DNA of 64,000 nt from Candidatus Scatovivens sp. (lineage in GTDB: Bacteria; Bacillota; Clostridia; TANB77; CAG-508), in the NCBI GenBank assembly GCA_045646345.1, contig JAZRKN010000011.1:1-64000 (forward strand), read 5' to 3'. This document shows, piece by piece, positions 2,000 through 47,084 of this stretch; positions within the stretch are counted from its first letter, which is position 1, and each line of letters opens with the position of its first letter. The position numbers and the translations under genes are program-made. The notes under the pieces were generated by a model. It was given only the letters and a program-made list of their open reading frames with translations. It made no database searches and was not told where the DNA came from.

Positions 2000-2033
2000 G
2001 TTATCCACTTTTTGTTCTCGAAATGTGGATAAC
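2000..2033. promoter_or_regulatory. Inverted pair of DnaA boxes at the 3' end of dnaN
   Basis: TTATCCACT 2001-2009 (1 mismatch) and TGTGGATAA 2024-2032 (perfect). Confidence 0.6.
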
Positions 2034-3148
2034 TATTCTTTCATTTTTATTGGTAATATCATATAAATATAATCACCATCATCAATTGGTTTTATTATAC
2101 ATGGAGATCTGTTTGTTCCAAATTCAATATATACTTCTTCATCATCAATTGCTTTTAAAGCATCTAAGAAGAATCTTGGGTTGAAACCAATTTCAAGTTC
2201 TTTACCTTCTGTATCAACAAAAATCTCTTCTTTTGCATCTCCTGTTTGGTTAGCGCAAGAAATTGTTACCTTTCCAACCTCAATATTTATTTTAACTGGA
2301 TATTTTTTCTCTTTTTCTATTGATGAAGCTGATATTAATAAAATTCTTTCAAAACAATTTTGAATATTAGATTTATTAACTTTTACTCTTGTTTCCCAAT
2401 TTTGTGGAATTGTATTTGAATATTTTAAGAATTCTCCATCTAATAATCTTGTTACTATTTTACAATTTTCCATCTCAAATAAAGCTTGGTTTCTTGAAAT
2501 ACCTATTTTTACTGTATCAAATGAATCAGATATAATTTTATTTACTTCATTTAATGTTTTACCTGGTATTACACTACTAAAACTATTTGCAACTTCATTT
2601 AATATATTTGATTTTATTGCTAATCTGTATCCATCAACAGCAACAACATTTAATTTATTATCTATTACTTCAAATAAACAACCTGTAAATATAGGTCTAT
2701 TTTCTTCTGTACTTACAGCAAATATTGTTTTTCTAATCATGTTTTTTAATGTTGTTTGTTCTATTTCTATAGAATTATCTACATTTATTCTAGGTAATTC
2801 AGGAAATTCATCAGGATTCATTGTAGCTAATTTATAAAGTGATCCTTCACATTCTATTTCTAATAGATTATTTTCATTTATAGTTAATTTTATTTCTGTA
2901 GAAGGTAATCTTTTAATAATCTCACTAAACATAGTAGCATTTACTACTGTATTTCCTTGTTCTTCTACATTTGCTTCTAATATATATTCTATTCCTATTT
3001 CTAAATCATAAGATGTTAATTTTAATTCATTATCATTTGTTTGAATAAGTATTCCTTCTAATATAGGCATTGTTGTTTTAGAGGCTACACCATTTATAAC
3101 AGAACTAATACCTTTAAGAATTTTTTCTTTTTCACAAATAACTCTCAT
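2033..3148 (-). CDS. dnaN: DNA polymerase III beta sliding clamp
   Basis: PILEGILI, VAVDGYRLA, TRLLDGEF, IGFNPRFFLDAL, ILPIK motifs; directly downstream of dnaA. Confidence 0.97.
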   Translation of the reverse strand: MRVICEKEKILKGISSVINGVASKTTMPILEGILIQTNDNELKLTSYDLEIGIEYILEANVEEQGNTVVNATMFSEIIKRLPSTEIKLTINENNLLEIECEGSLYKLATMNPDEFPELPRINVDNSIEIEQTTLKNMIRKTIFAVSTEENRPIFTGCLFEVIDNKLNVVAVDGYRLAIKSNILNEVANSFSSVIPGKTLNEVNKIISDSFDTVKIGISRNQALFEMENCKIVTRLLDGEFLKYSNTIPQNWETRVKVNKSNIQNCFERILLISASSIEKEKKYPVKINIEVGKVTISCANQTGDAKEEIFVDTEGKELEIGFNPRFFLDALKAIDDEEVYIEFGTNRSPCIIKPIDDGDYIYMILPIKMKE

Positions 3149-3467
3149 TTCTTTTCTCCTTTAATTAAATAATATAAATAGTAGTATTAGTATTAGGGGG
3201 TGTGAATTTAGTGGATAACTTTTCAAACCCTTTATTTCCCTAACAAAAACTATGTGTAAAACTCTGTGAATAATTTTTGTTTTTATCCACATTATTCAAT
3301 ATCATTTGTGAATTCTTAGTTATTAACATGTTTTGTACAAGTTTTTCACAGTACCTTGTGGAAAACCTAGCTAGCTTTTCCGTAGGAGTTAATAGCTCTT
3401 CTTTAGTAGAAAAATATGTTTGCAAAACATAAATTTTGTTTTATTCGAGTTTTTGTTTATATATAAA
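3149..3467. other. oriC (dnaA-dnaN intergenic region) with DnaA boxes and DnaA-trio unwinding element
   Basis: TTWTNCACA boxes at 3253-3261, 3265-3273, 3283-3291, 3342-3350, 3357-3365 and a near-box at 3210-3218. The minus strand reads TTATCCACT-AAATTCACA-CCCCC-TAATACTAATACTACTAT then an AT-rich run, matching the box/GC-tract/DnaA-trio layout of the B. subtilis basal unwinding system. Confidence 0.9.
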
Positions 3468-4814
3468 TTAATTTGAATCTTGGATAATGTTTTTCACACT
3501 TTCCACAATTAATTTTGTATTTGTTTTTTCTTTGATTTCTTTTTCTATTTTATTTACGGCATGCATTACTGTAGTGTGGTCTCTGTTTCCAAAATCAGCC
3601 CCTATTTTTGGGAATGACATTCCAGCAACATTTCTACATAAGAACATTGCAATTTGACGAGGAAAAGCAATATCATTTGATTTTTTTGAAGATATAATAT
3701 CTTTTTTATCAATATTGAAGTATTTTGCAACAACCTCTTGTATGTAATCAGAAGAAATAACCTTCTCTTTTTGTAATACAATATCGTTTATAGATTTTTC
3801 TGCGATTTCAATTGTTATTGGGCTGTGTGTTAAAGATGCATAAGCAACTATTTTATTTAGGGCCCCTTCAAGTTCACGAATATTTGAATCTATTTTTGTA
3901 GCGATAACTGATAATATATAGTCATCGATTATTATTTTATCTGCTTGTACTTTTTTTCTAAGAATTGCTAGACGAGTTTCATAATCAGGCATTGAAATAT
4001 CAGCAAGTATTCCCCATTCGAATCTTGATTTTAATCTTTCTTCTAAAAGAGGAATATCTCTTGGCGGTTTATCACTAGAGATTATTATTTGTTTTCCATT
4101 TTGATGAAGAGTATTAAATGTGTGGAAAAATTCTTCTTGTCCTGTCTTCTTCCCTGCTATAAATTGAATGTCGTCTATTAATAAAACATCTATATTTCTA
4201 TATTTATTTCTAAATAATTCATTTTTATAATTAGCATCTTTAATAGAATTTACTAATTCATTAATAAATTGTTCAGAAGTAACATATAAAATTTTCGTAT
4301 TAGGATTATTTTTAATAATCTTATTTCCAATAGCATGCATTAAGTGTGTTTTTCCAAGCCCTACTCCTCCATATATAAATAATGGATTATAAGCTGTAGC
4401 TGGCGATTCAGAAACGGCAAAAGCTGCTGCTTGGGCAAATTTATTATTATTTCCTATTACGAAATTATCAAATGTATATTTTGGATTTAAGAAACTATTA
4501 CTATAGTTTTCTGTATTTACAAAGTCTGTTTTTTCTTCGATTAAAACTGTACTTTGGTTATCTTCAGTTTTTTCTATGATTTCTATTTCACAATTTTTAT
4601 TTGTTATAAAATTGAATGTATTAGAAACTAAATCAAATAAACGTGATTCAATTGCGTCTTTTTGCATTTTTGAAAGAGCAACAAGAACGATTTTGTTATC
4701 ATTTATAGATTGTATTTCTAAATTTTTAATCCAAGTTGTATACGAAATAGTTGTCATCTCTTCTTTTAAAAGATCTTTTGCTTTTGTAAGTAAGTCGTTT
4801 TTATCAGAATACAT
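3468..4814 (-). CDS. dnaA: Chromosomal replication initiator DnaA
   Basis: YNPLFIYGGVGLGKTHLM, LLIDDIQF, RELEGAL, RDHTTVMHA. Confidence 0.99.
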   Translation of the reverse strand: MYSDKNDLLTKAKDLLKEEMTTISYTTWIKNLEIQSINDNKIVLVALSKMQKDAIESRLFDLVSNTFNFITNKNCEIEIIEKTEDNQSTVLIEEKTDFVNTENYSNSFLNPKYTFDNFVIGNNNKFAQAAAFAVSESPATAYNPLFIYGGVGLGKTHLMHAIGNKIIKNNPNTKILYVTSEQFINELVNSIKDANYKNELFRNKYRNIDVLLIDDIQFIAGKKTGQEEFFHTFNTLHQNGKQIIISSDKPPRDIPLLEERLKSRFEWGILADISMPDYETRLAILRKKVQADKIIIDDYILSVIATKIDSNIRELEGALNKIVAYASLTHSPITIEIAEKSINDIVLQKEKVISSDYIQEVVAKYFNIDKKDIISSKKSNDIAFPRQIAMFLCRNVAGMSFPKIGADFGNRDHTTVMHAVNKIEKEIKEKTNTKLIVESVKNIIQDSN

Positions 4815-4847: not shown

Positions 4848-5179
4848 TTATCCACAAGTTTGTCCACATACTGTTTTAAAAGTCTTGATTCCTCAATGGT
4901 TTTGGGAATCAACAATATGTGGAAAACTCAAAAAAGTTCTTTTTATCCATTGTGCTCACATAATATCAAAAATAATTTAAAAAAACAAGCGAAAAATTAA
5001 ATTAGTTAGATTAAATTTAAAATAAATAGTATAAAAGAGAATAAATGAGATTGAGTATTTTTTAAAAATATTTCTTACCTATTATATTTATAGAAAAAAT
5101 TAATAAAAAATTATTAAATTTTGCTAATTACTTGACTTTTTTTGAGTTTTTATAGTATAATCTCTATTACTGTGAATAA
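4848..5179. promoter_or_regulatory. dnaA/rpmH divergent promoter region with DnaA boxes
   Basis: TTATCCACA 4848-4856, TTGTCCACA 4860-4868, TGTGGAAAA 4918-4926, TGTGAATAA 5171-5179. SigA-like TTGACT(5132)-18bp-TATAAT(5156) faces rpmH. Confidence 0.75.
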
Positions 5180-5242
5180 ATATGTTATTTATTACAAATA
5201 AGTTTGTTTAAAATAAAAATTATATAAATTAGGAGGTGCAAA

Positions 5243-5377
5243 ATGAAAAGAACATACCAACCAAAAAAAAGACAAAGAAATAAAGTTCATGGATTCAGAA
5301 AAAGAATGCAAACAAGAGCTGGAAGACAAGTTTTAAAAGCAAGAAGAAATAAAGGAAGAAAAAGAATTTCAGTTTAG
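5243..5377 (+). CDS. rpmH: 50S ribosomal protein L34
   Basis: Manual translation [44 protein letters not shown]; AGGAGG RBS; below the ORF-track size cutoff. Confidence 0.98.
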
Positions 5378-5385
5378 AATAAAGA

Positions 5386-5409
5386 AGGGGCAATTAGCGC
5401 CCTTTTTTT
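5386..5409 (+). terminator. Intrinsic terminator-like hairpin after rpmH
   Basis: AAGGGGC-AATTAGC-GCCCTTT followed by a T run. Confidence 0.6.
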
Positions 5410-5513
5410 ATATGAGTGTTATTTAATTACTAAAGTTCTCAATACTAATCAAGCACAGTAAAACCAAGGGTTTTAAAGATTTATAAAATAAATAATTTAT
5501 TTATTTAGAAAGG

Positions 5514-5870
5514 ATGATAGTAATTATGAAAAATACAATAATGATTAAAAAAAATTATGAGTTCAAAACTTTATTTTCTAAAGGTAAATTTTATTACGGC
5601 GAGTACATTCATATGTATATAAGAAAATCAAATTCTGAAAATAATAAATTTGGAATTGCAATATCTAAAAAACAGGGGAAAGCAGTAAAAAGAAATAGAA
5701 TAAAAAGACTAATTAGAGAAAATTATAAAAATTTCGAAGAAAAAATAGAGAATGGAACACAAATTTTAATTGTTATAAATAAAGAAAAAAATATTGCGGA
5801 GATTGGCTTTAAGGATATTGAAGAAAATTTCCAAAGAACATTGAAAAAAGCGAATATTTTGGTGAATTAA
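5514..5870 (+). CDS. rnpA: Ribonuclease P protein component
   Basis: [27 protein letters not shown] motif; start may be ATG 5526. Confidence 0.96.
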
Positions 5871-5872
5871 TT

Positions 5873-6082
5873 ATGAAAAAAATACTTATATTATTGATAA
5901 ATTTTTATCAAAAAGGAATATCACCATGGCTAGGGCCAAGGTGTAAATATGAACCAACGTGTTCCGAATATACAAAACAAGCTATAGAGAAATATGGGGC
6001 AATAAAAGGCACTATAATTGGAGCTAAAAGAATTTTGAGATGTAATCCATTTTCTAAAGGTGGATATGATCCGTTAAAATAG
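5873..6082 (+). CDS. yidD: Membrane protein insertion efficiency factor YidD
   Basis: [32 protein letters not shown]. Confidence 0.96.
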
Positions 6083-6092
6083 GGGGAGAAAA

Positions 6093-6944
6093 ATGTTTAA
6101 ATTTTTTGCAAACATACTAGGCTACGTGCTTAATTTTATTTATGGTTTTGTAGGAAATTATGGTATAGCCATAATTATTTTTACATTGCTAGTAAAAGGT
6201 ATAATGCTACCAATTTCTATCAAACAACAAAAAACAATGAAAAAGTCTGCAAAAATACAAGTTAAAGCTAAAGAAATTCAAGAGAAATATGCTAATGATC
6301 AAGTAAGACAATCACAAGAATTAATGGATTTATATAAAAAAGAAAATATGAGTCCGTTTAGCGGATGTTTAACATCAATAATTCAAATTGTTCTTATACT
6401 AGCTGTATTTTATCTTGTAAGCAGCCCATTAACTTATATGAAAAAAATAGATTATAAAATAATTGAAACATATACAGCAGAATTAAAAGAAGAAAAAAAT
6501 GTTGAAAACATAAATTATCCAGAAATAGCTATAATAAAAGAAAAAGCAGCAAAAGATGAAAATGTAAATATAAATATGGAATTTTTAGGATTAGATTTAA
6601 GTGACATTCCAACTCAAGATTATACAGATTGGACTGTTTATATAATTCCAGTTCTATATGTTGTAACATCACTAATTTCAACTAGATTAACAACTTCACT
6701 TAATACTAAACCAAAAGAAGAAAATGTTGTTGAAAAAACTTTAGAGAAAAAAGAAGAAGATAATTCTCAAGAAGACATGATGGAAGAAATGAATAAACAA
6801 ATGAATTTTATGATGCCTATAATGACAGTGAGTATTGCTTTAATAGCACCTCTTGGATTAGCATTATATTGGTTAGTAAGTAATGTTTTAATGATAGGTG
6901 AAAGATTAGTTTTAAATAAAGTTTTCAAAGAGGAGGAAGAATAA
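6093..6944 (+). CDS. yidC: YidC/Oxa1 membrane protein insertase
   Basis: NYGIAIIIFTLLVK, SPFSGCL, GLALYWLVSN; synteny. Confidence 0.95.
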   Translation: MFKFFANILGYVLNFIYGFVGNYGIAIIIFTLLVKGIMLPISIKQQKTMKKSAKIQVKAKEIQEKYANDQVRQSQELMDLYKKENMSPFSGCLTSIIQIVLILAVFYLVSSPLTYMKKIDYKIIETYTAELKEEKNVENINYPEIAIIKEKAAKDENVNINMEFLGLDLSDIPTQDYTDWTVYIIPVLYVVTSLISTRLTTSLNTKPKEENVVEKTLEKKEEDNSQEDMMEEMNKQMNFMMPIMTVSIALIAPLGLALYWLVSNVLMIGERLVLNKVFKEEEE

Positions 6945-6946
6945 AG

Positions 6947-7651
6947 ATGGAAAACAATGTGTATGTTTTTGAAGGAAAAACATCAACAGAAGCTATAGAA
7001 AAAGGCTTAAATGAGCTAAAAGTTTCAAAAAGCAGAGTTGATATAAAAATATTAGAATCAGAAGATAAAAGAAGTTTCTTTAGCATTTTAACACCAAGAG
7101 TTGTAAAAGTTGAAATGAGATTAAAAGAAGCAGTTGAAGAACCAAAAAAAGAAGTAAAAGCAGAAAATAAAAAAGTTGTTAGATCAGAAAATGTAGACAA
7201 TACAGAAGCAATTGCAAGTGCAAAAAAATTCTTAGATGAATTTATAGAAAAACTTCCAAGTGAAGGATTAAGCTATGAAATAACAGAAGAAGGAAATGTT
7301 ATTAAAGTAGATATTAAAGGAAATGAAACAGGATATTTAATTGGTTATAGAGGAGAAGTTTTAAATAGTATTCAAACTGTTTTATCAAACATCGCTTCTA
7401 AATCAAATAAAGAAAAGGCAAGAGTGGTTGTAAATATTGGTGGATTTAGAGAAAAAAGAGAAAAAGATTTACAAAATTTAGCCTCAAAAATTGCTGGTAC
7501 AGTAATAAAAACAAAGAAATCTATTACATTAGAACCAATGTCAGCTTATGAAAGAAAAATAATTCATACAAAATTACAAGAAAACGACAAAGTTAAAACT
7601 TATAGTATAGGTGAAGAACCATACAGAAAAGTAGTTGTTTCATTAAAATAA
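6947..7651 (+). CDS. jag: Jag/KhpB (EloR) RNA-binding protein
   Basis: Jag_N, KH (LIGYRGEVLNSIQ) and R3H (MSAYERKIIH) domains. Confidence 0.94.
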   Translation: MENNVYVFEGKTSTEAIEKGLNELKVSKSRVDIKILESEDKRSFFSILTPRVVKVEMRLKEAVEEPKKEVKAENKKVVRSENVDNTEAIASAKKFLDEFIEKLPSEGLSYEITEEGNVIKVDIKGNETGYLIGYRGEVLNSIQTVLSNIASKSNKEKARVVVNIGGFREKREKDLQNLASKIAGTVIKTKKSITLEPMSAYERKIIHTKLQENDKVKTYSIGEEPYRKVVVSLK

Positions 7652-7671
7652 TAATTGTTTTTGTAAAATAT

Positions 7672-7708
7672 AAACTCAGATATTAAGAAATTAGTATCTG
7701 AGTTTTTT
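7672..7708 (+). terminator. Intrinsic terminator after jag
   Basis: AAACTCAGATATTAA-GAAA-TTAGTATCTGAGTTTTTT. Confidence 0.75.
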
Positions 7709-7878
7709 ATTTTGTGAAAATAATATGTTACAACCTATTGTATAGCTCAAACACATTGATTTAAAAGCAAAAGATTTGTTTTGTTATTGCATAATTATGT
7801 ATACTATGATATAATATAACCTGATTTTTAATAAATATAATTTTTAGAAATTAATATAAAAGAAAATGAGGAAGGTAA

Positions 7879-9243
7879 ATGAGTACAATAGCTGCAATTT
7901 CTACAGCACCGGGTATTGGTGGTATAGGAATAATAAGAATGAGTGGTGAAAATTGTTTTGATGTTTTAGAAAAAATATTTAAACAAAAAAACAGCCAAAA
8001 AATTGAAGATATTAAAGGGTATTCAATTAAATATGGAACTATTGTTGATGGAGATGAACTAATAGATGAAGTTTTAGTTTCTTATTTTAAAGCGCCAAAG
8101 AGTTATACTGCAGAAAACATGTGTGAAATAAATTCACATGGTGGTGTGGTTATAATGAATAAAATTTTAGATCTTTGTGTAAGAAATGGTGCAGAACTTG
8201 CAGAGCCTGGTGAATTTACGAAGAGAGCGTTTTTAAATGGAAGAATGGACCTTTCTCAGGCTGAGGCTGTTATAGATGTTATAAATGCTAAAACAGATAA
8301 AGAAGCCAAAATATCATTGGAACAATTAGAAGGAAATCTATCAGAAAAAATAAAAAGTATAAGAAAAACAATAATTTCTGTCATGGCAGATATAGAAGCT
8401 ACGATAGATTATCCAGAATATGATTTAGAAGAAGTCACAAATGCCAAAATTTCGAAAATTTTGGATGAGGTAGATATAATACTTGACTCGTTAGAAAAAA
8501 GTTTCTATAATGGCAAAATTTTAAGAGAGGGAATAAGTACTGCTATAATAGGTAGACCAAATGCAGGAAAATCTTCACTTTTAAATCTTATTCTAAATGA
8601 AGAAAGAGCGATAGTTACTGATATAGAAGGAACAACAAGAGATACAATTGAAGAATATATATCTATAGATGGAGTTCCTTTAAAAATTATAGATACCGCT
8701 GGAATTAGAAATGCAAGCGACGAAGTTGAAAGAATAGGTGTACAAAAAGCAATTGAAATAGCAAAGAAAAGCGATGTAGTAATAGCTATTTTTGATGTCA
8801 GTAGACCGCTTAATAAAGAAGATAATGATATTTTAGAATTATTAAAAGATAAAAATTCAATAATATTATTAAATAAAATTGATTTGGATAGAAAAGTAAG
8901 TTTAGAAGATATAAAATCTGTAAATAAACCTATTGTAGAAATATCAACTAAAACAAGAGAAGGATTAGAAGAATTATATTCAGAAATTTCTAAACTATTT
9001 AAATTAAAAGATATTGCAAATGATGGAGAAACAATTGTAAGCAATGTTCGTCACAAGAATATAATAATAAATTCAAGAAAGAATTTAGGAAAGGCAAGAG
9101 AAACAATTAGAACAAATATGCCTATAGATATCATATCAGGACATTTAAAAGAAATCTTGGAAGAGTTAGGAAAGATAACAGGGGAGACTGTTACAGAAGA
9201 TGTTATTGCTGAAATTTTCTCTAAATTCTGTTTAGGAAAATAG
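7879..9243 (+). CDS. mnmE: tRNA modification GTPase MnmE
   Basis: TIAAISTAPG, GRPNAGKSS, GTTRD, DTAG, NKID, C-terminal FCLGK. Confidence 0.98.
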   Translation: MSTIAAISTAPGIGGIGIIRMSGENCFDVLEKIFKQKNSQKIEDIKGYSIKYGTIVDGDELIDEVLVSYFKAPKSYTAENMCEINSHGGVVIMNKILDLCVRNGAELAEPGEFTKRAFLNGRMDLSQAEAVIDVINAKTDKEAKISLEQLEGNLSEKIKSIRKTIISVMADIEATIDYPEYDLEEVTNAKISKILDEVDIILDSLEKSFYNGKILREGISTAIIGRPNAGKSSLLNLILNEERAIVTDIEGTTRDTIEEYISIDGVPLKIIDTAGIRNASDEVERIGVQKAIEIAKKSDVVIAIFDVSRPLNKEDNDILELLKDKNSIILLNKIDLDRKVSLEDIKSVNKPIVEISTKTREGLEELYSEISKLFKLKDIANDGETIVSNVRHKNIIINSRKNLGKARETIRTNMPIDIISGHLKEILEELGKITGETVTEDVIAEIFSKFCLGK

Positions 9244-9310
9244 AAACAAAAGTTCTTGTTTCACGATTGACAAATTGTAAAAAAGATTATAAGTAAAAGA
9301 GGAATATAAA

Positions 9311-11188
9311 ATGAAATATGATGCTGGAAAATATGATATAGCAGTCATTGGAGCAGGGCATGCTGGTTGTGAAGCAGCTCTTGCTGCAGCTAGATTAGGT
9401 ATGAAGACATTATTGTTTTCTATTAGTTTAGAGTGTATTGCTAACATGCCATGTAATCCTCATATAGGAGGAACATCAAAAGGTCATCTTGTAAGAGAGA
9501 TAGATGCTCTTGGTGGAGAAATGGGAAAAAATATAGATAAAACAATGATTCAACTTAGAATGTTGAATACTTCAAAAGGGCCTGCTGTACACTCTTTAAG
9601 AGCACAAGCTGATAGAAAAAGATATCAAGCTGAAATGAAATATACTCTTGAAAAACAAGAGAATTTATTTGTAAAACAAGCAGAAATTGTTGACATTCAA
9701 GTAGAAGATGGAAAAGTAAAAGCGATAGAAACAAATTTAGGCGCAATTTATAATGTAGATTGTGTTATTTTAGCGACAGGAACATATTTAAAAGGAAAAA
9801 TTTTTATAGGAGAAGCATCTTATGAAAGTGGTCCAGATGGGGTTGCTGCTGCAAATCAATTATCTGAGTGTTTAAAAAAATTAGGTATAGAAATTCAAAG
9901 ATTTAAAACAGGAACACCAGCTAGAATTAATAAAAAAAGTATTGATTTTACAAAAATGGAAATTCAAGAAGGAGAGACTGATTTAGTTCCGTTTTCATTT
10001 GAAGATAAAATGCCCGATATTGAACAAATTCCATGTTGGCTTACATACACAAATGAAAGAACACATGAGATAATAAGAAAAAATCTTCACAGATCTCCGT
10101 TATATGCTGGAGAAATTGAAGGAACAGGACCTAGATATTGTCCGTCTATAGAAGATAAAGTAGTAAGATTTGCAGATAAAGAGAGACATCAAATATTTGT
10201 TGAACCTGTTGGGTTAGATACAAATGAAATGTATATACAAGGAATGAGTTCATCTCTTCCAGAAGATGTGCAAATAGCAATGTATAGAACACTTCCGGGA
10301 TTAGAGAATTGCGAATTTACAAGACCAGCCTATGCGATTGAATATGATGCTATAGAACCGTCTCAATTAAAAAGTTCTTTAGAATTAAAAACAATAAGTG
10401 GAATGTTTTTTGCGGGACAAATTAATGGTACATCTGGTTATGAAGAAGCTGCATCACAAGGGTTAATTGCTGGAATAAATGCAGTTCAAAAAATTAAAGG
10501 TAAAAATCCTGTAATACTTGATAGATCTGATGCATACATTGGTGTTTTAATAGATGATATAGTAACAAAAAGCACCCAAGAACCATATAGAATGATGACT
10601 TCAAGAGCTGAATATAGATTATTATTAAGACAAGATAATGCAGATTTAAGATTAACAGAAATAGGGCATGAAATAGGATTAATATCTGATGAAAGATATG
10701 AGAGATTTCTGAAGAAAAAAGAAGAAATTGAAAAAGAAATTGAAAGATTGAAAACAACAAATGCAAAACCGAATGAAGAAACAAATAAATTTTTGAGAGA
10801 ACAAGGAACTTCTGAAATAACTGCAGGTACTAAGCTTGCAGAACTTTTGAAAAGAACGGAAATAACATATAAATCACTTGCTGCAATAGACAAGAAAAGA
10901 CCTGAGTTAGATAGACAAGTAACTGAAGAAGTAGAAATTATGGTTAAATATGATGGTTACATAGAAATGCAAAAAAGACAAGTAGAAGGATTTAAAAAAT
11001 TAGAGAAAAAACTTTTACCAGAAGACTTAGATTATAATACAGTAAAAGGTATTAGATTAGAAGCGAGACAAAAACTTAATAAATATAAACCATATTCAAT
11101 TGGACAAGCGTCAAGAATATCAGGCGTTTCTCCAGCTGATATATCAGTGTTATTAATATACTTAGAACAAGCAAAAAAGAAAAAATAA
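9311..11188 (+). CDS. mnmG: tRNA uridine-5-carboxymethylaminomethyl modification enzyme MnmG
   Basis: [34 protein letters not shown]. Confidence 0.98.
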
Positions 11189-11998: not shown

Positions 11999-12164
11999 AT
12001 TAAACCAGATGGGTTATGATTTTTTTAATATATTATAATAAGGAATAAATTGTTTTAAAAGTTTTTGAAATGAATTGACATATTAAAAAAATTTTTATAT
12101 TATAATAGGGTAAATTTTGCTTAAAAAAGAAAACATAAATAAAAATCATAAGGAGGGATTTACT

Positions 12165-12950
12165 TTGGGAAGAGTAATATCAATTGCCAATCAAAAAGGT
12201 GGAGTAGGAAAGACAACAACAGCAGTTAATTTGAGTACTATCTTGGCAAAAAAAGGAAAAAAAGTAATGTTAATAGATGCAGATCCTCAAGGTAATGCGT
12301 CTAGCGGTTTAGGACTAGAAAAAGAAGTAGAAAATTCTTTATACGATGTGTTGATAAATGATGTGGATTTAATGTCTACATTACAAGATACATGTGTTAA
12401 AACATTGAAAGTATGTCCTTCAAATATGGACTTAGCAGGAGCTGAGGTTGAACTTGTTTCTCAAATGTCTAGAGAACAAAGATTAAAAGAAAAAGTAGAT
12501 GCTGTAAGAGATGACTTTGATTATATTATAATTGATTGTCCACCATCACTTGGATTGATAACACTAAATGCGTTTACTGCTTCAAATTCTGTTTTGATTC
12601 CTGTACAATGTGAATATTATGCATTAGAAGGTCTTGGACAACTTCTTAATACAATTAATTTGGTAAAAAAACATCTAAACAAAGGTTTGGAGGTTGAAGG
12701 TGCTGTTCTTACAATGTATGATATGAGAACAAATTTATCAAACCAAGTTGTAAAAGAAGTAAAAAGATATTTTGAAGATAAAGTTTATAAAACTGTAATT
12801 CCTAGAAATATAAAATTAAGTGAGGCACCAAGTTTTGGAATGCCAATTACTTTATATGATGCAAAGTCAAAGGGCGCAAGAGCTTATGAGAAGCTAGCTA
12901 GAGAAGTTTTGAAAAATGATGAAATAAGAAGTAAAGGTGAGGAGGAATAA
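12165..12950 (+). CDS. parA: Chromosome partitioning ATPase ParA/Soj
   Basis: NQKGGVGKTTT, DADPQGNA, DCPPSLG, PVQCEYYALEG. Likely start TTG 12165 after AGGAGG; TTGACA(12075)-17bp-TATTAT promoter upstream. Confidence 0.97.
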   Translation: MGRVISIANQKGGVGKTTTAVNLSTILAKKGKKVMLIDADPQGNASSGLGLEKEVENSLYDVLINDVDLMSTLQDTCVKTLKVCPSNMDLAGAEVELVSQMSREQRLKEKVDAVRDDFDYIIIDCPPSLGLITLNAFTASNSVLIPVQCEYYALEGLGQLLNTINLVKKHLNKGLEVEGAVLTMYDMRTNLSNQVVKEVKRYFEDKVYKTVIPRNIKLSEAPSFGMPITLYDAKSKGARAYEKLAREVLKNDEIRSKGEEE

Positions 12951-12952
12951 AT

Positions 12953-13795
12953 ATGGCAGCTAAAAAAACTGGATTAGGAAAAGGATTGGATGCATTATTT
13001 AGTACTCCAATTGTAGAAGAAGTAAAACAAGAAGAATTAGTAAAAAAATTAAACATTAATGAAATTGAACCAAATAAAGCACAAGCAAGAAAAATTTTTG
13101 ATGATGAAGCTATAGAAGATTTATCAAACTCAATTAAGGAATATGGTGTAATACAACCAATTATAGTAAGTAAAAAAGAAAATTACTATGAAATAATTGC
13201 TGGAGAAAGAAGATGGAGAGCATCTAAAAGAGCTGGACTTACTGAAATACCAGCAATTGTAAGAGAAGATGATGAACAAAGAAATAAAGAAATTTCATTA
13301 ATCGAAAATATTCAAAGAGAAGATTTAAATCCAATTGAAAAAGCAAGAGGTATAAAACTTTTAATGGACGAACACTCTCTTACACAGCAACAAGTTGCTG
13401 AAAAATTAGGAAAAAGCAGAAGTAGTATTGCAAATACAGTAAGAATATTAAATTTAGATGAAAGAGTAATAAATTTAGCTTTAGAGGGGAAACTAACTGA
13501 AGGACATTGCAAATCATTGATGTCAATTGATGATCCAGAAAGACAATATAATATGGCTTTATATATTATAGAATCAGGAGATTCTGTAAGAGAAGCTGAA
13601 AAGAAAATGAAAGTAAGAAAAAAAGCTAGTAAAAAGAATGATAAATATATACCAATATATAGAGATATAGAAGACAAATTCCAAGGATTTTTTGGAACTA
13701 AAGTAAAGCTAGATGCAGGAGAAAGAAAAGGAAAAATTATTATTCAATACAATTCTAATGATGATTTAGAGAGAATTTTAGGTTTAATAAAATAA
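12953..13795 (+). CDS. parB: Chromosome partitioning protein ParB/Spo0J
   Basis: GLGKGLDAL, IIAGERRWRA, ENIQREDLNPIE, HTH GKSRSSIAN, EGH. Confidence 0.97.
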   Translation: MAAKKTGLGKGLDALFSTPIVEEVKQEELVKKLNINEIEPNKAQARKIFDDEAIEDLSNSIKEYGVIQPIIVSKKENYYEIIAGERRWRASKRAGLTEIPAIVREDDEQRNKEISLIENIQREDLNPIEKARGIKLLMDEHSLTQQQVAEKLGKSRSSIANTVRILNLDERVINLALEGKLTEGHCKSLMSIDDPERQYNMALYIIESGDSVREAEKKMKVRKKASKKNDKYIPIYRDIEDKFQGFFGTKVKLDAGERKGKIIIQYNSNDDLERILGLIK

Positions 13796-13807
13796 GGAAG
13801 TGGTATA

Positions 13808-14329
13808 ATGGAAAATCTTTTACAAGTCTTGAAAACAGAGGAGTTTATGATAATTTCTTTTGTTATAAATATAGTTCTTGTTATAGTTACTTTAATTAAT
13901 GTAGTTATGTTAACAAAGGTTAATAAGAAATATATAAAATTCATGAAACAACTTGGGAATGGTAACAATTTAGATGAAATGTTAAGAAATTATTTAAGAG
14001 ATGTTAAAGAAATAAAGCAAGATAATGCAGAAATTAAAGCTTATTACACAAAATTAGATAGTGATTTAACATCTTGCATACAAAAAGTTGGATTAGTAAG
14101 ATATAATGCGTTTAGAGATGTAGGAAGCGATTTAAGTTTTGCTATAGCATTATTAGATGGAAATGATACAGGTGTTGTTTTGAATGGATTATATGGTTCA
14201 GATTCATCAAACATTTATGCAAAACCTATAAAAAGAGGTACATCAACATACCAATTATCTGATGAAGAAAAATATGCATTAGAAATTGCAGAACAAACAA
14301 AAAATTTTGTAGCTAAAAATAGATTATAA
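13808..14329 (+). CDS. DUF4446 family membrane-anchored protein
   Basis: N-terminal TM; QKVGLVRYNAFRDVGSDLSFAIALLD..G..YAKP..LSDEE; usual neighbour of clostridial spo0J. Confidence 0.85.
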   Translation: MENLLQVLKTEEFMIISFVINIVLVIVTLINVVMLTKVNKKYIKFMKQLGNGNNLDEMLRNYLRDVKEIKQDNAEIKAYYTKLDSDLTSCIQKVGLVRYNAFRDVGSDLSFAIALLDGNDTGVVLNGLYGSDSSNIYAKPIKRGTSTYQLSDEEKYALEIAEQTKNFVAKNRL

Positions 14330-14353
14330 AACAAAAAATAAGTAAAAATTTTT

Positions 14354-14377
14354 AAGAGGCGAGAAGCCTCTTTTTTT
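14354..14377 (+). terminator. Intrinsic terminator of the par operon
   Basis: AAGAGGC-GAGAA-GCCTCTT followed by a T run. Confidence 0.75.
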
Positions 14378-15375
14378 ATGTTTTATGTGCTAGAAAACAA
14401 ATTATACTATGAGCAACAATAAAATGTCTTAAAATTGATTTTCACGCTTTAAAAATACATATAAATTTTATATAAAAAGTGAAAAATTTTTTAAAATATG
14501 TGAAAGAAAATTAAAAAAAAGAAATTTTTATATAAAAAATATGGTGTGGATAAAAAAAATAAAATGTAGAATTTTTTTATTTTTTTTAAATAAATTAAAA
14601 ATAAATTGTAAAAAAATAAGTAGAAAATATAAAAAATAATAAATTTAGTTAAAAAATATATAAAAAGATAATAAAATAATAAAAATATCCAAAAAATAAA
14701 ATAATATTTTTTTGTTTTTGGGATGCTATATAGAAATTATATAAATTTTAAAAAAGTAAAAAAAGCTTTAAATCAATGCTTTTAGGGTGTGGAAAAAATA
14801 AAATAAGAAAAAAATAAAATTATAAAAAAGAGAAAATATATAAAAAGCGTATTAAAAAATTGAAATAATTATGTTTTTAACAAAAATTTTTAAGAATTTT
14901 ATAAAAATTAAGAAAAAATAAGAAAAAAATATTTTGAAAAAAATATAGAAGTGAGAAATACCAAGGAGAATCCGCTTTTTTAGAAAAGAAAAAAATAAAT
15001 AAAAATATTTTTATTTTTGCTAAAATTGGAATAAAAAACAAAAAAATATACTATTTAAATTATTTATTTTTAATTTTAATATTGTATTTTTTTAAAAAAG
15101 ATATATTTATTTAATAAAAATATAAAAAATAAATAAAAAAATAGAAATTTTTTATATTTTAAAAATCTTGAATATAACAGATTTAAAAAGACTGAAAAAT
15201 AAAGGGTTTGATGTATGTGGAAAAATATTTTTCTTAATTTTGAAGGGATTTTAATATAATTTACTTATTTTTTAAAAAAATTGAAAAAATATCTTAATAT
15301 AAAGAGGTAAAAGACATGAAAATTTATAAATTTTTGATCAAAAATAAAAGATTTTTTAAAAAACAAAAAAATTTG

Positions 15376-15405
15376 TTGACAAAGTAAATAGTAATATGCT
15401 AATAT
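15376..15405 (+). promoter_or_regulatory. SigA-type promoter for the tRNA-Ser pair
   Basis: TTGACA 15376-15381 and extended -10 TGcTAATAT 15397-15405. Confidence 0.7.
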
Positions 15406-15433
15406 ATATGTGTTGTTGATGAAACAGCCAAGT

Positions 15434-15525
<92 letters not shown>

Positions 15526-15528
15526 AAG

Positions 15529-15565
15529 AAATGGAAGCTGAATCATATTTTTAGCTTCCATTTTT
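15529..15565 (+). terminator. Terminator-like hairpin between the two tRNAs
   Basis: AAATGGAAGCTGAA...TTAGCTTCCATTTTT. Confidence 0.6.
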
Positions 15566-15594
15566 AAATATATATGAGAAAATTTAACTATTTT

Positions 15595-15687
15595 GGAGAT
15601 TTACCCAAGTGGTTGAAGGGGACGGTTTGCTAAACCGTTAGGGTTGCGTAAGTGGCCGCGAGGGTTCAAATCCCTCAATCTCCGCCA
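15595..15687 (+). tRNA. tRNA-Ser(GCU)
   Basis: GGAGATT/AATCTCC acceptor stem, ACGGT-TTGCTAA-ACCGT anticodon arm, long variable arm, GGTTCAAATCC, GCCA end. Confidence 0.97.
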
Positions 15688-15717
15688 AAAGACAGCTGAT
15701 AAGGCTGTCTTTTTTTG
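15687..15717 (+). terminator. Intrinsic terminator after tRNA-Ser(GCU)
   Basis: AAAAGACAGCT-GATAA-GGCTGTCTTTTTTT. Confidence 0.8.
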
Positions 15718-18700
15718 TTATAAAAACAATCGAAAGAATTATTTATTTTTGCTAAAATGAATGAAAATAAGTATGTGGAAAAGTATAACAAAAGCTACAA
15801 TTTCAATGCTTTGAGAGGAAAAAGAAAAAGTAGGGTGTTAATAAAATTTTTTAACAAATTTGGGGTTATTTTTCTTTTAAAATTTAAGCTTTTTTTGGGC
15901 ACAAAAAATACGAAAAAATTTTTTTCTGTTTTTTTATTAAAAAGGAAAAAAATGGTTAATTTTTATAAAAAAATAGTAATTTTTAGTAAAAATTAACTAA
16001 AAATTATGAAAAAATTGATTTTTAAATTATATTTAGAGAAGCAAATTTATTAAAAAATAAAAGAAAAAAATTAATATAATTTATAAAAATGCTGAAAAAT
16101 CAATCTTTTTTTTAAATGAAGACAAAAAAATATTTTTTATATTTATTTTTTTTGAAGTCAAAAATTCTAAAAATCAAATATTTTATTAAAAAACTTTATA
16201 AAATATAACAAAAAAGCTTTAAAAAAAGTTAAAATATAGTTTTTTTTATTATATTTTTGAAGAAAATATAGAACTCAAAAAGGAGCAAAGCCTTTGGCTA
16301 CAAAAGAATTAAGGAAAATGTGAATGGAATTTTTAAAAATTATAGACTTATAAAAAATCAAAAAAATAAAAAAATTTATTTTTTAAAATGAAAATTTAGG
16401 TTTTTTTTATAAATATTGATAAAAAAATGTACAAATTTGTGTTTTTTTTATAAAAATACTAAAAAAAATAATGCAAAAGTATAAGATTTTTTTAGAAAAT
16501 TCAAAGATAAATCGTTTTATAATAATGCGAAAAGCCTTTAAATAGAGAGTTTGATGAATTGCCGTTAAAAATAAAAAATAGAAATTTTACGATTTTTTAG
16601 AAATTAAAATATAATTTTTTGGAGCTGTAATCGAAGAAAAATTATAAATTTTTTTGAAAAAGTGGGGATAAAAAAGAGATTTTTTTATAAAAATGACAAG
16701 ATAATTTGAAAATAAAAAGCTTGCGAGGATTGAAAATTAGGCATTTTTATATTAAAAACATGAAATTATATTAATGAATAAAATAAAATTATAAAATTTT
16801 GTATTATTAAGGAGATTAAAATAGAAAAAATATAAAAATGTTAATAAATTTGTAGAAAATTGTTTTATAAAAATAATAAAAATAAAAGATTAATAAGTCA
16901 AAAATTTATAATAAATTAAAGAAAAAAATTTAATTTTTAACTAAAAAAATTGAATTAAAAACATGGTATTATGAGTATAAAAAATAGAAAATAAAAGACG
17001 GGAAATAGTTGGGAAATAAAGAGTATAGAAAAAGTATTTTTTATATTTTAAAAACAAAAATTATGAGAAAAAAATAAAGCAAAAAAGAAGAAATATCTAA
17101 AAGTATAAATTAAAAAAATAAATTTAGAATATAAAAAAATATATAGATCTAAAAACAAAAAAATATAATTTTTTATTTTTTAAAAATTAATAAAAATAAA
17201 AAAAATCGAAGTAATTTTTTTTAAAAATAAAAAATAATTAGAATGAAAAAATATATAAAAAATAAAAATGCAGTAATAGCAAGCAAAAGAAGCTTTTTTG
17301 CCAAAAAGCAAAAAATATATTAATAAAAATAGCGATAATAAAAAATAAGAAAAAAGAAATTTAAAAGAATATGAAAATGTGATGTATTTTAGTTTCAATT
17401 TTTTATTTGAAATCTATTCAAAAAATATTAAAAAAAATATGAAAAAAGTGAAAATAAAAAAACGATAAAGCTCTGGGAAATAAAGGGTTGAAACATATTT
17501 TTGTACGATAAAAAATAGTGTACATAAAACAGTAAAATGTATGATTTTGATAGTGAAAAATTTCAAAAATTTAGCTAAAAATTTTGAAAAAAATATCGAA
17601 AAAAAACATGAAAAAAAGTAAAAAAATATTAATTTTTTTATAAAAAAATTAAATATTAAAAAAGTTTTTTTATAAAAAATGACGTAAAAATATAAAGAAA
17701 AATTTAAATGTATAAATCAAAAAATAAAAAACACTGTAATTTCAATGCTTTGATGCTTTTTGTTTAAAAATATAGGTAATCTAAACGTTTTTTGTGTGAT
17801 CCAAAAATAAATAAAAAATGAAAGAAAAAAATATATATGTAAAAAGTTTTTTTTATAAGAAAATTCAAGCTTTTTAATAATAAAAATTAGCTATTTTTTA
17901 TTATTAAAAAATAGCATTTAAAAATGGCTGTAACTCCTGGGAAATAAAGATAATAAGGGGTGAAAAAATGCTCGAAAAATAATAAAAAAAATAATATAAA
18001 ATTTGGCTAAAAATTACTGTTTTTTTGAATAAAAAAATAGTAAAAAAATGAATAAAAAAATAGTTTTTTTATTTTATTTTATTAAAAAATGATAAATAAT
18101 TTCATGATAAAATTAGTTTTTTTAAAAAAATTAACGATAGAAAAAAACACTACATAATAGTCGAAAAAAATCTTTCTCTTGGTGCTCTAAACAAATCGGG
18201 AAAAAATATGTTTTTTTGACTGTATTAAGGTACATTTTAAATTCTATAAAAAATTAGAAACTTAAATTTGATAATTTTTAAATTTTTTGTATAAAAAATG
18301 AAAGAAATTTTCTCTTCAAAATAGTTGTTTTTTGTGTACTAGAAAAATGGGCAAAAAGCTTGGGAAATATAAGATTTGAAAGACGAAAAATAGATGTTTT
18401 TTTAAACACAAAAAATTACTTATTTTTATTAAAAAATTATTCAAAAAAATGACAAAAAAGACTATAAAAAATGAAAAAAATCTTTTTTAAAATGTACTTT
18501 TTTTCTTTAAAATTTAGATAAATTTATTTAAATAATTTTTATATTTATAAAAAACAGATTAAGAAAATAATAAAAAAAGTTATAAAATAACCTGTAATGG
18601 CTGATATATATAGGTATTTAGGCTTTTGATATAAAAATGAAGAAAAAGTCTTTTTTTAATTAAAAAATTAGAAATGTACAGAATATATAGATTAACTAAT

Positions 18701-20132
18701 TGGGGATTATTTTCTCAAAAAAATATAAATTAATTTGAAAAAATATAACTAAAAAATAGAAGAAATTATGATAAAAAACTATACAAAAAAATTTTTTAAA
18801 AGTATGGGAAATAAAGGGTTTGAAAGAATAAAAAATAATATTTTTTTATTAAAAAAATACACGTTTTTTTGGAAGTTTTTTTATAAAAAAAACAACGAAA
18901 AAATGTCTAAAAATGTATGAGAGAAAAATATAAAAAACTGAAATTTTTGATTTTCTTTTTCTTATAAAATATAAGAATATCGTGTTTTAAAATAGAAAAA
19001 TAAAAAAGTAGAGTATAAAAAAATTTAATATTTATATATAAGAAACATCTAAAACTTGATTTTAATAGGTTTTTGGAGGATTTTATGTTTTTTTGATTAT
19101 TTAAGAATTTATTGTATAAAAAGATAAAAAAATTAAAATTTTAAAGAAAAGGTAGATTAAAAGTGGAAAATATTTTGTACTTATTTTATAAAAATGATTA
19201 ATAAATATTTGATTAAATATACAAAATTATATAAAAAAAGTGGTGCGTAGTATAGTAAAAATATTGATTTTTTTATCTTATATATACCTTGGGATAGAAG
19301 GGATTAAATGAAAAAAATAAATGCAAGAAAATTAGAATTTTTTATATTAAAACTTGAGTTATTTATTAAAAGATATTATATATGTTAATCTTAAATTTAA
19401 ATAAAAAAAATGTAAAAATATGACATTTTGTTTTTTAAAAAAAATATAAAAAATAAAATAAATAATAAATTTTTTTAATGAAAATTAAGAAAAAAAATCA
19501 TTTTATTATAAAAATATAACTTGGATATAATTTTTATTGTAATTTTTATAATAAAAATTATAATTTGCTTAGATTTTGAAAAAAATCAAATCCTTTTAGC
19601 TGTAGCTTTTGATACTAAATTTATATAAGAATCGACTTTTTAAACCAAATTTAGAATGATAAAGAATCTGAAAACGAAAAATTGGATATAAGAACGGTTG
19701 ATTTTAAATTGATTAATGTAATATTATAAAAAAAGTATAATTGTATTGGCAATAAAACAATTGTATTTTAAATATAAATAATCCAAAAAATATGTTTTTT
19801 TAGATAAAAATTAATTCTCGCAAAGCACAGGGAAATAAAAGGAAGAACATTTTTTTAATAATATTAATATGTGATCGACATGAATTAACATAATTCATAA
19901 TGTATAAACTAAAAGGAGATTCATAAAAGAGTAAAAAATATTTTTGTATTGTAATAATTTATATAAAAAGGATATAAATTTTATTGTGAAGAAAAATGAA
20001 AAAAATAAAAAAATGAAAATTAAAAAAATTTTTTGAATTTATAAAAAATTATCATAATGAATTTAATATATGTTAATAATAATTTATTTTAAATGATAAT
20101 AAATAAAATAATAAATAATGATTTAATATAAT

Positions 20133-20180
20133 AAAACAGGCGATTGAAAATCGATTTTAAAGCGATTTTAATTGCCTGTT
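20133..20180 (-). terminator. Hairpin terminator downstream of the CoA-activase gene
   Basis: AACAGGCGATT-G-AAAATCG...CGATTTT-AATTGCCTGTT inverted repeat with a T tail on the minus strand. Confidence 0.6.
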
Positions 20181-20235
20181 CATAAACGTATTCGAATTTA
20201 TATAATTTTTGCTTAAAATTGATTTTAAGGCAAAA

Positions 20236-32506: not shown

Positions 32507-35500
32507 ATGAAAAGGAAAATGTTAATCTCAATTGCATTACTAACAATTATGCTATTGAACTGCATGATGCCTCTATTCATGGTATATGCAGCCGAAGGTG
32601 AAGGGATTCAACTAAACAGTACTTTATTCTATGCAGTTGTTGACGCTATTGACTGTGTTGATAACGGTGACGTTGCATTTGAAGTCAACGAAGGTACTCA
32701 CACGATATACATAAGTGCTGAAGAACTTGCTAAAGTTAAGTGTTTAGATCTTGCCGGAAAAGGTATTAATGATCTAACAAACTTAGACAAATTTACAAGT
32801 TTAGAGCGCTTAGTATTATCATCAAATGATCTTTACAGCGGTGAGGAAAGCAATTTAAGTGTATTAGATAACTTACCTAATTTAGTACATTTAAATTTAT
32901 CAGAAAACCACTTAGATAGTGTTGCTGATATTCCTGGTACAATGGAAAGATTATTTAACTCAGATAATGGTACAATATTATTAACTGGACAGATTGTTAA
33001 TAAAGTAGTTACTGTTGATATGAATACAGTAGATAAAGATGCTACTGTACCAGAAACAGTAACAGTAGAAGTACCAGAAATCTTAAGTCTTGCTGGAGAT
33101 TTAAAATCAGTTTGGAAAACAAAAGAAGGATATACACAAACAGATCCAACATTAAAGATTGAAGAATCTTTATTAAAGACTTTAGGATTACCATATATAG
33201 ATTATGCAAAATTTGCTGATTTATATAAAGTAGGACCAGATTCAAAATCATTAACTGTAACAGTTGCTGATTCAAACGGTCTTCCTTATTATGGTATGTT
33301 AAAATATACTATTTCTATAGTAGATGAAAAGGGTGAAGGAGGATTAGCTAGTAACTTAAACAAAGCTTCTGAAAATGCTCTTTACGAATCAGTATTTAAC
33401 ATTTACGTAGTTGTTAAAAACTCAGTAAATGAAGCTATTACAATGGTAGATGAAAATCTTTATTATGCAGTAAAAGAACAATTAACAGGTGGACAAACAG
33501 TTAATGGAGAATTATCAAGCTATCCATATGTAGTAGATATGAATGGAAATACTATCTATATAGAATATGTATATACAACTACAACAGTTGAGGGAACAAA
33601 CTATCAAATATTAACAGAAAAAGATTCAACAACACCTGTATATTGTTATGATCCTGCAACAGCAAGATTATATACATATGAAGATGACGTTGTAGTTGGT
33701 GAATTAGTTGATGATGTTACATTAACACCAGCAACAATTCAAATAGTAAGTGAAACAGATGGTTCAATTACAACTAGAAATGGATATACAACTCCATTCA
33801 AATCAGAAAAAACAGGAGAAACAATGTATATAGCAGCATATGATGATGCTTATACACTTCTTATCAATGATGATGTTCTAACAAATGATATTACATCTTT
33901 AGTATTAGATGGTAAAAAAATCCAATATTTAGATGGATTACAATACTTTGTAGGATTAACTTCTGATTTAAATTTAAGTTATAACTACTTAAAAGGAGTA
34001 GAACAATTATCATTATTACAAGCCCAAAAAGATCATTGGGAAAAACAAGTTGTTGAAAACTATTCTGAACTATTAAAAACAGATCCTGATGGAAACTTAA
34101 GTACAGTAGTAGCAGAAATAGAAGCTATTATGCAAAAAGTTGAATCAACATCAGGAGCAGATGTAGCTGGAAAAATTATTGAAATTTTAAGAGATGCATC
34201 TAAATTAGTTACATCAGATGAAAATTACGAAACACAATTACAAGAAAAAGCAAATCTATTATCAGAAGAATTTAAAAAATTATATGGTTACACAGATACA
34301 GAGGGTAAACATGTAAATGGTTTAATTGATAATTTAGAAGAAGATTTGAAAGCAGAAGGAAGCACAGACACAGATGCAACAAGTATCTCAGATTTATTAT
34401 GGGAAGCTTATGCATATTTATCAGCATTATATAGAGAATATAGTAATGAATATAAAATTACAACTTTATTAGCTGATAACGTTAATTATATGACATATTC
34501 AGATTATGAAAAATATTCTGAAGCAGTTAAAACATATGAAACAGCTAAAGTTTTAGGAGATGAACAAATTGCTTTTGTAACAACATTAGAATCAGCTAAA
34601 GCTTTATCTGAATTAGATATGGAATTATTATTATCTGTATTCCCAGGAATACAAAAATATATTGATGAAGAATCTGAAACACCAGTTGCAGATTATTTCG
34701 CAGAACAAGAATATAGCCATGCAGGTTATAAAAGAATTCTTAAAGAATTCAGAATGATTGGATTATATTCAGAATTAGCAAATTATTGCTTAATTAAAAG
34801 AATGGAAGTAGAAACAGCTCCTGGAATCTGTTATGCAGAAGAATATTTAGAAAGAAGAATTGAAGAATTAAGCTTAGAAAATATTCCAGCTGATTATGAA
34901 GAAGCTATGCTAGCAAGATTAAAAGGAGAATATGCTGATTTATCATTCTTTGAAGATGATGCAATGATGATTGCAAGTTTTGATGATGTTACAGCTGCAT
35001 ATGTAGATTATGCTGCTAGAACATATGAATATGGAGAAGAAATCTCTATAACTTCTGGAGAATATCTTCCAGTAACAGATGTACAATTCACAGTAGAGAA
35101 TTATACAGCTGAAGAACTTGAAAATTTAGTTATACCAGCAGAATCAAATGGTAATTTCGCACAAGCACAAGCAGCTTTAGATTTAGCTGATGGTATTAGC
35201 AAAAATGTAGTTAAACAAATCTATTTAGCTGAAGAAGTTAATGGTGTGTTTGGCGCAGAAAACGAATTAGTTGTATACAATCAATTAATGAGTTTAGCAA
35301 AAAAATTATTAAATGGTAACGTTGAAAAATATGTTCAATTAGCAGATCTTAAAAAATTGAATATTGCTGAAAACGGACACTTAGACAACTTAGAAGGAAT
35401 TACAGAATTACAATCACTAGTTGATTTAAATGCTGATCACTGTGCATTCTCAGATGTAGAAAGCATTGATTGGTCAAAATTACCAAACTTAAGAAAATTA

Positions 35501-36958: not shown

Positions 36959-36970
36959 TAAAGATTGAAG

Positions 36971-37002
36971 TATTTAGGCGATGAAAAAAAGTCGCCTAGA
37001 TA
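36971..37002 (+). terminator. Hairpin between the dockerin and cohesin genes
   Basis: TATTTAGGCGAT...GTCGCCTAGATA; no T tail on the plus strand, so possibly a stabilising or processing hairpin. Confidence 0.45.
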
Positions 37003-37081
37003 CGACAAAAAAAGTCATAATTAACAAAAAAAGGTATTGCATTTTAAAAAAAGAAATGGTATCCTTGTATTGTATTAGCAA

Positions 37082-47070: not shown

Positions 47071-47084
47071 GGAGGTGAATAAAT

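Follow-up and report, generated by a model that had tools for sequence, protein, structure and literature searches.

A 25-bp motif shared by the replication origin, the hup promoter and an array beside parAB points to a probable site for the single HU/IHF-family protein of a Scatovivens genome

One 25-bp motif is present in the spacer between DnaA boxes at the replication origin, in the oriC1 region upstream of dnaA, at the promoter of hup and in a gene-free array beside parAB, and its positions, their conservation and the sequence common to them are observed directly. Because the motif is common to the origin, the region upstream of hup and an array of about 24 units, it is probably a preferred binding and bending site of the single HU/IHF-family protein of this genome, as judged from sequence comparison. 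An earlier note on this DNA had started from a 20-bp sequence found in both the origin and the array, and had proposed that whatever binds the array probably also binds oriC. The shared sites stand, as one motif family with a conserved position and with HU as a named candidate, and the binder itself is one that we infer.

The window, by which we mean the whole stretch of 64,000 nucleotides analyzed, carries recF, dnaN and dnaA followed by rsmG, parA, parB and a DUF4446 gene, in a genome of 1.79 Mb with 27-28% G+C. Elsewhere in the window, a 3,740-codon open frame with internal repeats of ~207 bp runs from 58455 past the window end (contig 69674). Next to it are further surface-type genes of very large size (41482-55949), together with a dockerin/cohesin pair (32507-38017). 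The features of the origin region are as follows.

2033..3148, minus strand: dnaN (Pfam DNA_pol3_beta)
3179..3196, plus strand: six DnaA-trios (TAG/TAT repeats), read from the sequence and kept in genus origins
3201..3218, minus strand: tandem DnaA boxes, a weak one at 3201-3209 and the trio-proximal one at 3210-3218
3219..3252, no strand: 34-bp spacer between DnaA boxes, from box-to-box distances, equivalent to the IHF region
3221..3240, minus strand: the 20-mer, in the 25-bp motif 3224-3248 (centre 3236)
3253..3261, minus strand: next DnaA box, with 2 mismatches, 43 bp from the proximal box
3357..3384, minus strand: distal DnaA box (3357-3365) and second core TTCCGTA (3378-3384), the core 21 bp from the box start
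3468..4814, minus strand: dnaA (Pfam Bac_DnaA)
4879..4903, minus strand: oriC1 copy of the motif (14.2 bits) upstream of dnaA, amid DnaA boxes at 4848, 4860 and 4918
5450..5474, minus strand: motif copy between rpmH and rnpA (16.6 bits, rank 35 of 1.79 million), genes named from place and sequence reading without a family scan

Within the dnaA-dnaN gap, the six trios are followed by a G run, the tandem weak box at 3201-3209 and the box at 3210-3218. Measured start to start, the proximal box and the next one lie 43-44 bp apart in 27 of 29 genus origins; in 15 of 16 order-level origins the range is 42-45, and of 18 phylum-level origins 10 have 43-44 and 8 have 52-56. These counts come from relatives that are non-independent samples, after origins with no anchor were dropped (11 of 29 at the phylum level and 2 of 18 at the order level), and a few of the anchors are visibly off. 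The spacer of 34-35 bp beside the DUE-proximal box, together with the sequence of the motif, is in keeping with the likeness to an IHF site drawn in the earlier note. The likeness to Spo0A drawn there was not upheld, as the Spo0A box TGTCGAA has 0 exact matches in oriC2 or the array.

The motif is a 25-bp pseudo-palindrome around TTG-N5-CAA with a consensus of about AAAnnnTTG-AAAAT-CAAnnnTTT, and it is degenerate, at less than 1 bit per column. De novo motif discovery in the arrays of relatives, with this genome left out, returned AAAAnnnTTG-AAAT-AAAggaTTT with a log-likelihood of 231-234 compared to at most 80 on simulated arrays. In its sequence the motif resembles a symmetric IHF consensus, with likeness to WATCAAnnnnTTR and to the core AAAnnCAnnnnTTT in the available text of PMC10380432. 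One or the other of these patterns was matched by 4 of 9 tested sites, including oriC1, rpmH-rnpA and hup, the last of which fits the core, and the origin copy fails both. A symmetric matrix built from arrays and hup promoters, and from no origins, peaks at +26/27 from the proximal box, which is the centre of the spacer, and column-permuted matrices reached that peak in 7, 0 and 0 of 300 trials for the genus, order and phylum, respectively. A further peak of similar or greater height is present at +16/17, overlapping the box, and the origin signals from this matrix repeat at 10-bp steps. The origin site of this genome is a moderate match only, ranking 2431 genome-wide; it is the fourth-best register with the asymmetric array matrix and falls outside the top 8 with the hup-trained matrix. 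Its best-kept part, TTCCCTA (22 of 29 genus origins), departs from the left arm of the consensus. The second core, TTCCGTA, is present in 26 of 29 genus origins; in 24 of the 29 it is 20-21 bp away from the distal box, and it is a weak match to the symmetric matrix (-1.0). Intermediate forms connect the origin-type and consensus variants in register, and the position of the origin site is kept phylum-wide regardless of the array. A terminator at oriC was rejected for want of a hairpin, with the origin site and three array units folding at 0 to -4.5 kcal/mol.

The array directly follows the parAB genes, with these features.

12117..14329, plus strand: parA, parB and a DUF4446 gene, directly preceding the array; parB is the sole ParB-family gene found
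14330..20235, no strand: gene-free array of 5,906 bp, 16.8% G+C, with about 24 motif units, from sequence and motif scan
14545..16671, minus strand: five DnaA boxes in the parB-side half, at 14545, 14788, 15216, 15774 and 16663
15434..15687, plus strand: two tRNA-Ser genes within the array
17466..17490, plus strand: array unit with 15 bases in common with the origin site
18798..18825, plus strand: array unit with the exact 20-mer (18806-18825)

The units, counted at a motif score of at least 7 bits, are mostly 190-270 bp apart. A-tracts in the array are phased at 11.25 bp, with an amplitude of 2.23 compared to 0.23 ± 0.07; phasing lies above every shuffle in 7 of 9 long arrays, and phased A-tracts dominate the array. 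DnaA boxes are enriched in the arrays (34 versus 12 ± 3 expected), and for 14 of these 34 boxes a motif lies at an offset of -16 to -18 or +26 to +28, both of which are seen in oriC, while 0 have one at half-turn-shifted offsets. The array boxes of this genome are single and hundreds of bp apart, and three of the five are offset by -16, -18 or +27 relative to the centre of a motif, the arrangement also found in oriC. An AT-rich gap of at least 1 kb follows parB in 13 of 22 genus loci, most of the others ending early, and two long genus loci (L063, L071) are without an AT-rich array after parB. No large AT-rich gap follows parB in 18 order-level loci (2 short gaps) or in 20 phylum-level loci (1 short gap). 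Many genus contigs end 1-2 kb after parB, indicating that the array probably breaks assemblies and is under-counted.

Several other identities for the array were rejected. A reading as tRNA-integration scars is contradicted both by the finding that no 12-mer of either tRNA-Ser gene occurs elsewhere in the array and by relatives L068 and L091, which have an array beside parB without tRNA genes. Examined as a simple tandem repeat, the array yielded only low-complexity families. The Noc site is a 14-bp palindrome and parS a 16-bp palindrome. The array has no match to the Noc site within 1 mismatch, a search for the Noc half-site was likewise negative, no noc gene was found in the assembly and the sole ParB-family gene found there is parB; no parS is present in the array either, and 2-mismatch matches occur only at contig positions 11407, 11973 and 61775, all outside it. 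Those at 11407 and 11973, near parAB, are weak parS-like palindromes, and the assembly contains no perfect parS. The suggestion of the earlier note that the array titrates its factor is unlikely if the factor is HU, since HU is an abundant protein for which about 24 sites are too few. An architectural or DnaA-gathering role would be more plausible than titration, and tethering may also apply. The abundance of IHF is put at 5,000-10,000 per cell in the available text of PMC10380432.

A single gene of the HU/IHF family (PF00216), at C15:212557-212835, was found in the assembly, which is 96.7% complete, and its product is HU-like, being closer to solved HU (E 3.5e-32) than to IHF (E about 1e-15). 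With only this gene, the assembly does not encode an IHF alpha/beta heterodimer, and no actinobacterial IHF was found in it. When the genome was scanned with an array-only matrix, trained on neither this genome nor hup, a site ~160 bp upstream of hup ranked first of 1,790,333 positions. Two tandem copies of the motif lie upstream of hup, at C15:212995-213019 and ~40 bp nearer the gene, and both precede a conserved AGGA...GAAT promoter, which we take to be sigma-H-like. A conserved promoter is shared by 27 of 31 hup loci, in which best scores average 12.9 compared to 6.8 ± 0.4 in shuffles, and the site is mostly 88-90 bp before the promoter, a fixed position at which no DnaA box was noted. At the phylum level, p ≤ 0.05 was reached in 9 of 30 upstream regions versus 0 of 30 downstream regions of hup, an upstream signal that promoter A-tracts may inflate. 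The hup site of this genome, located where the upstream gene ends, forms a strong hairpin, the only strong one among the copies folded, and most of the hup copies in relatives are not perfect palindromes. Past work, in its available text, describes HU as binding irrespective of sequence and as needing DnaA to bind particular sites at the origin (PMC10325909, PMC13220808), and HBsu is also called sequence-independent (PMC13220808), with reviews leaving its origin site open. The parts available of two preprints associate Firmicutes HU with some compositional traits of IHF (10.1101/057489) and report that HU stimulates a Lactobacillus phage integrase without being required (10.1101/2023.11.06.565760).

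Outside this genus, the perfect palindrome has at least 120 viral matches, compared to 15 for a control palindrome with the same arms. From the 80 viral matches listed, 61 loci were taken and 19 left out as duplicates or near-duplicates; 9 of the 61 have a tyrosine integrase as a neighbor and 8 have a DUF5906, VapE or DUF927 gene, all three of which we take to be primase/helicase types. For the control palindrome, 0 of 8 distinct loci (of 15) are beside integrase or primase/helicase-type genes. Among the 80 genome matches listed, 60 have Bacillota titles, 7 are near an integrase and 38 lie within 60 bp 3' of a tRNA gene. At least 4 T are present in the next 6 bases for 34 of these 38, and the sequence suggests that such palindromes may be terminators, which may double as putative IHF/HU sites at island junctions. 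The tRNA-adjacent form (L316-L395) is a precise 23-bp palindrome seen in Clostridia, Flavobacteria and some Proteobacteria, with one orientation in 34 of 38. Among CRISPR leaders, 3 of 26 reached p ≤ 0.05, faintly suggestive of a site at about -24 relative to the first repeat, and motif-like sites were seen 22-25 bp before the first repeat in some Bacillota leaders (L439, L440, L441, L453, L465). This genome has no CRISPR, and no strong site is near its 7 integrase genes (best 3.8-10.6 bits). The origin-type TAGGGAAAT form was also observed at 41210-41235 of the window and at C11:69924 and C6:35254, 35335 and 42433, in gaps that lie upstream of a large surface-protein gene and of genes that read as rpoB- and rpsL-like from their sequences. 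A perfect motif adjoins a DnaA-box cluster in a Lachnospiraceae gap (L331:1190-1330), upstream of a gene that reads as DnaD-like.

The 20-bp match itself was confirmed as described in the earlier note: 3221-3240 is the exact reverse complement of 18806-18825, and the oriC copy begins 2 bp past the DnaA box at 3210-3218 (1 mismatch to the consensus) that precedes the trios. The identity does not extend by even one base on either side, the flanks show no similarity, and the 1.79-Mb genome contains no third copy and nothing else within 2 mismatches. The Markov count proposed in the earlier note gave 5e-6 to 6e-5 expected copies (about 1e-5) with models of order 0-8, and the 20-mer, with its two copies, is not common genome-wide. 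In 1000 order-4 simulated arrays, the longest match to this origin was at most 19 and never 20. Conservation across related origins held for the position of the site and failed for the exact 20-mer, which is identical in 1 of 29 genus origins, this genome's own. In 13 relatives with both regions assembled, the origin site and array share runs of 7-11 nt at the longest, and the best own-genome identity over the 20-mer is 13-16, near the cross-genome values, so that concerted evolution from an exact repeat is rejected. Only 6 of 4,466 origin-site/array-unit pairs share at least 15 bases. Given that the full 20-mer is not conserved, its exact identity is, by sequence comparison, incidental and without special meaning. 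In a public cattle-gut run, one contig covers 18651-19131 and differs at 4 letters, none listed within the 20-mer, in a comparison that covered one 1.1-kb part of the array and with a run that may be the source sample.

It is very improbable that the match reflects nothing but chance or short copying between oriC and the array, with no shared function. The origin site matches its own array units over runs of 20, 15 and 15 bases compared to at most 13 for the units of other genomes, as copying would produce, and isolated exact repeats of 20-22 bases are frequent in this genome (982 short runs). Yet the flanks of the two copies are dissimilar, the closest relative has a 17-base core with one mismatch at an unrelated place, upstream of a gene that reads as rpoB-like, a Lachnospiraceae DnaA-box cluster has the identical right arm of the motif, and the origin position is conserved phylum-wide whatever the array does. 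As a full explanation, copying or chance is largely refuted by the matrix results at hup and at the origin spacer and by the placement of DnaA boxes in the arrays. For the exactness of the identity, convergence of two near-consensus sites is most likely and is favored over short-patch copying by the one-mismatch core upstream of the rpoB-like gene and the Lachnospiraceae right arm; copying retains a minor share of the probability here, and the shared motif stays either way.

Two further explanations concern what reads the motif. Another sequence-specific protein might bind it at oriC, hup, other housekeeping promoters and the array, in which case the form seen at the origin, TAGGGAAAT/TACGGAA, may even constitute a separate class of site. 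This would fit the general regard of HU as non-specific, an origin core whose conservation far exceeds that of the remaining motif and which differs from the consensus left arm, a second core conserved at its distance from the distal box despite its score of -1.0, and the recurrence of the TAGGGAAAT/TACGGAA form upstream of rpoB- and rpsL-like genes. We consider it unlikely, however, as intermediate forms join both variants in register, the contexts of the motif (origin spacer, promoter of the sole HU, integrase/primase flanks) are those of IHF and Hbb, and searches for Noc, actinobacterial IHF, the Spo0A box and parS found none of them. Alternatively, shape alone could be the basis, with bendable DNA made of A-tract arms and two flexible steps being selected wherever a sharp bend is required and then used by DnaA looping and non-specific HU. 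The low information per column, the signals at 10-bp steps and the dominance of phased A-tracts in the array are consistent with this, as is the available account of HU on E. coli and Thermotoga spacers, where it needs DnaA and prefers bent DNA (PMC10325909). On the other hand, one precise palindrome recurs in unrelated viruses and genomes at no less than 8 times the frequency of a control palindrome that has the same arms, matrices with permuted columns but equal composition do not reproduce the signal, and the hup site keeps a fixed position although no DnaA box was noted there, all of which make shape alone decidedly improbable.

If the motif is a site for HU, as we favor, HU would kink the 34-bp origin spacer, and this would bring DnaA bound at the downstream boxes back onto the trio-proximal box and its trios, on the model of IHF between R1 and R5M in E. 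coli. At the hup site, HU would act as an autoregulator. Kinks made by HU in the array at 200-260-bp steps, combined with phased A-tracts and origin-style modules of DnaA box and motif, would produce a bent scaffold, and this HU-DnaA scaffold beside parAB could organize the origin region or gather DnaA, which is the weakest step that we infer. The spacer sequence may be helpful rather than essential, since, in the available text of each report, a B. subtilis origin remains functional with an artificial spacer that places a box at 44 bp, a position in line with the spacing seen here (PMC6669920), and HupA is dispensable for in vitro unwinding of C. difficile oriC (PMC7561715).

Known systems offer partial parallels, taken here from the available text of the cited work. 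The IHF region of E. coli oriC, between R1 and R5M, is 35 bp, and HU binds there when DnaA is present (PMC10325909). Like that site (PMC10325909, PMC10380432), the one described here has a gap of 34-35 bp beside the unwinding-proximal box and an IHF-like motif. Unlike it, the present motif is near-symmetric, as a homodimer would read it, the origin copy fails the strict IHF pattern, and the origin is bipartite with DnaA-trios. By analogy, the origin site may act as the IHF site does in E. coli, yet it is not an IHF site, because no IHF was found in this genome. Hbb of Borrelia burgdorferi binds the dnaA-dnaN region and its own upstream region (PMC2811001), the same two places, the dnaA-dnaN gap and upstream of its own gene, at which an HU/IHF-family site is predicted here. 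Binding is demonstrated for Hbb and predicted in this genome, where the protein is a typical Bacillota HU, and no large site array comparable to the one here was seen in the available text on Hbb. DnaA-dependent HU of E. coli and Thermotoga maritima also acts in the gap between boxes beside the unwinding element (PMC10325909), but it is regarded as sequence-independent, whereas the sequence here is conserved and recurs at sites without DnaA boxes. As in datA, DARS2 and the B. subtilis clusters, DnaA boxes and an architectural-protein site occur together near the origin, and datA is also beside tRNA genes (PMC10380432, PMC13220808). The array shares one trait with such DnaA-box clusters, in that its boxes are enriched and phased with a putative architectural site. 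Where datA measures 187 bp, however, the array covers 5.9 kb; its boxes are single and scattered, it includes ~24 motif units, its A-tracts are phased, and it was found here in one genus only.

No description of the motif or the array was apparent by title or abstract in the open full-text literature searched, and the spacer may be depicted in the figures of PMC10325909 and PMC7561715 that illustrate the origins. The available portions of PMC13643167 and 10.1101/2023.05.26.542337 contain nothing on the 25-bp motif. Within the reach of these searches, the array of this genus represents a type of non-coding DNA near the origin for which no earlier description was seen. A broader reading can be put forward tentatively, in which Bacillota HU would be a de facto IHF with a symmetric 25-bp code at a phylum-wide place in oriC, at its own promoter and at integration and phage-origin sites, and in which this genus would have amplified that code into a 6-kb phased HU-DnaA scaffold beside parAB, centromere-like, that folds with or feeds the origin. 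If HU reads the motif, a protein thought to ignore sequence would gain a defined address at the origin. With a conserved motif at the spacer centre and again at the hup promoter, the site to target and the bases to change by mutation are specified, making this proposal directly testable.
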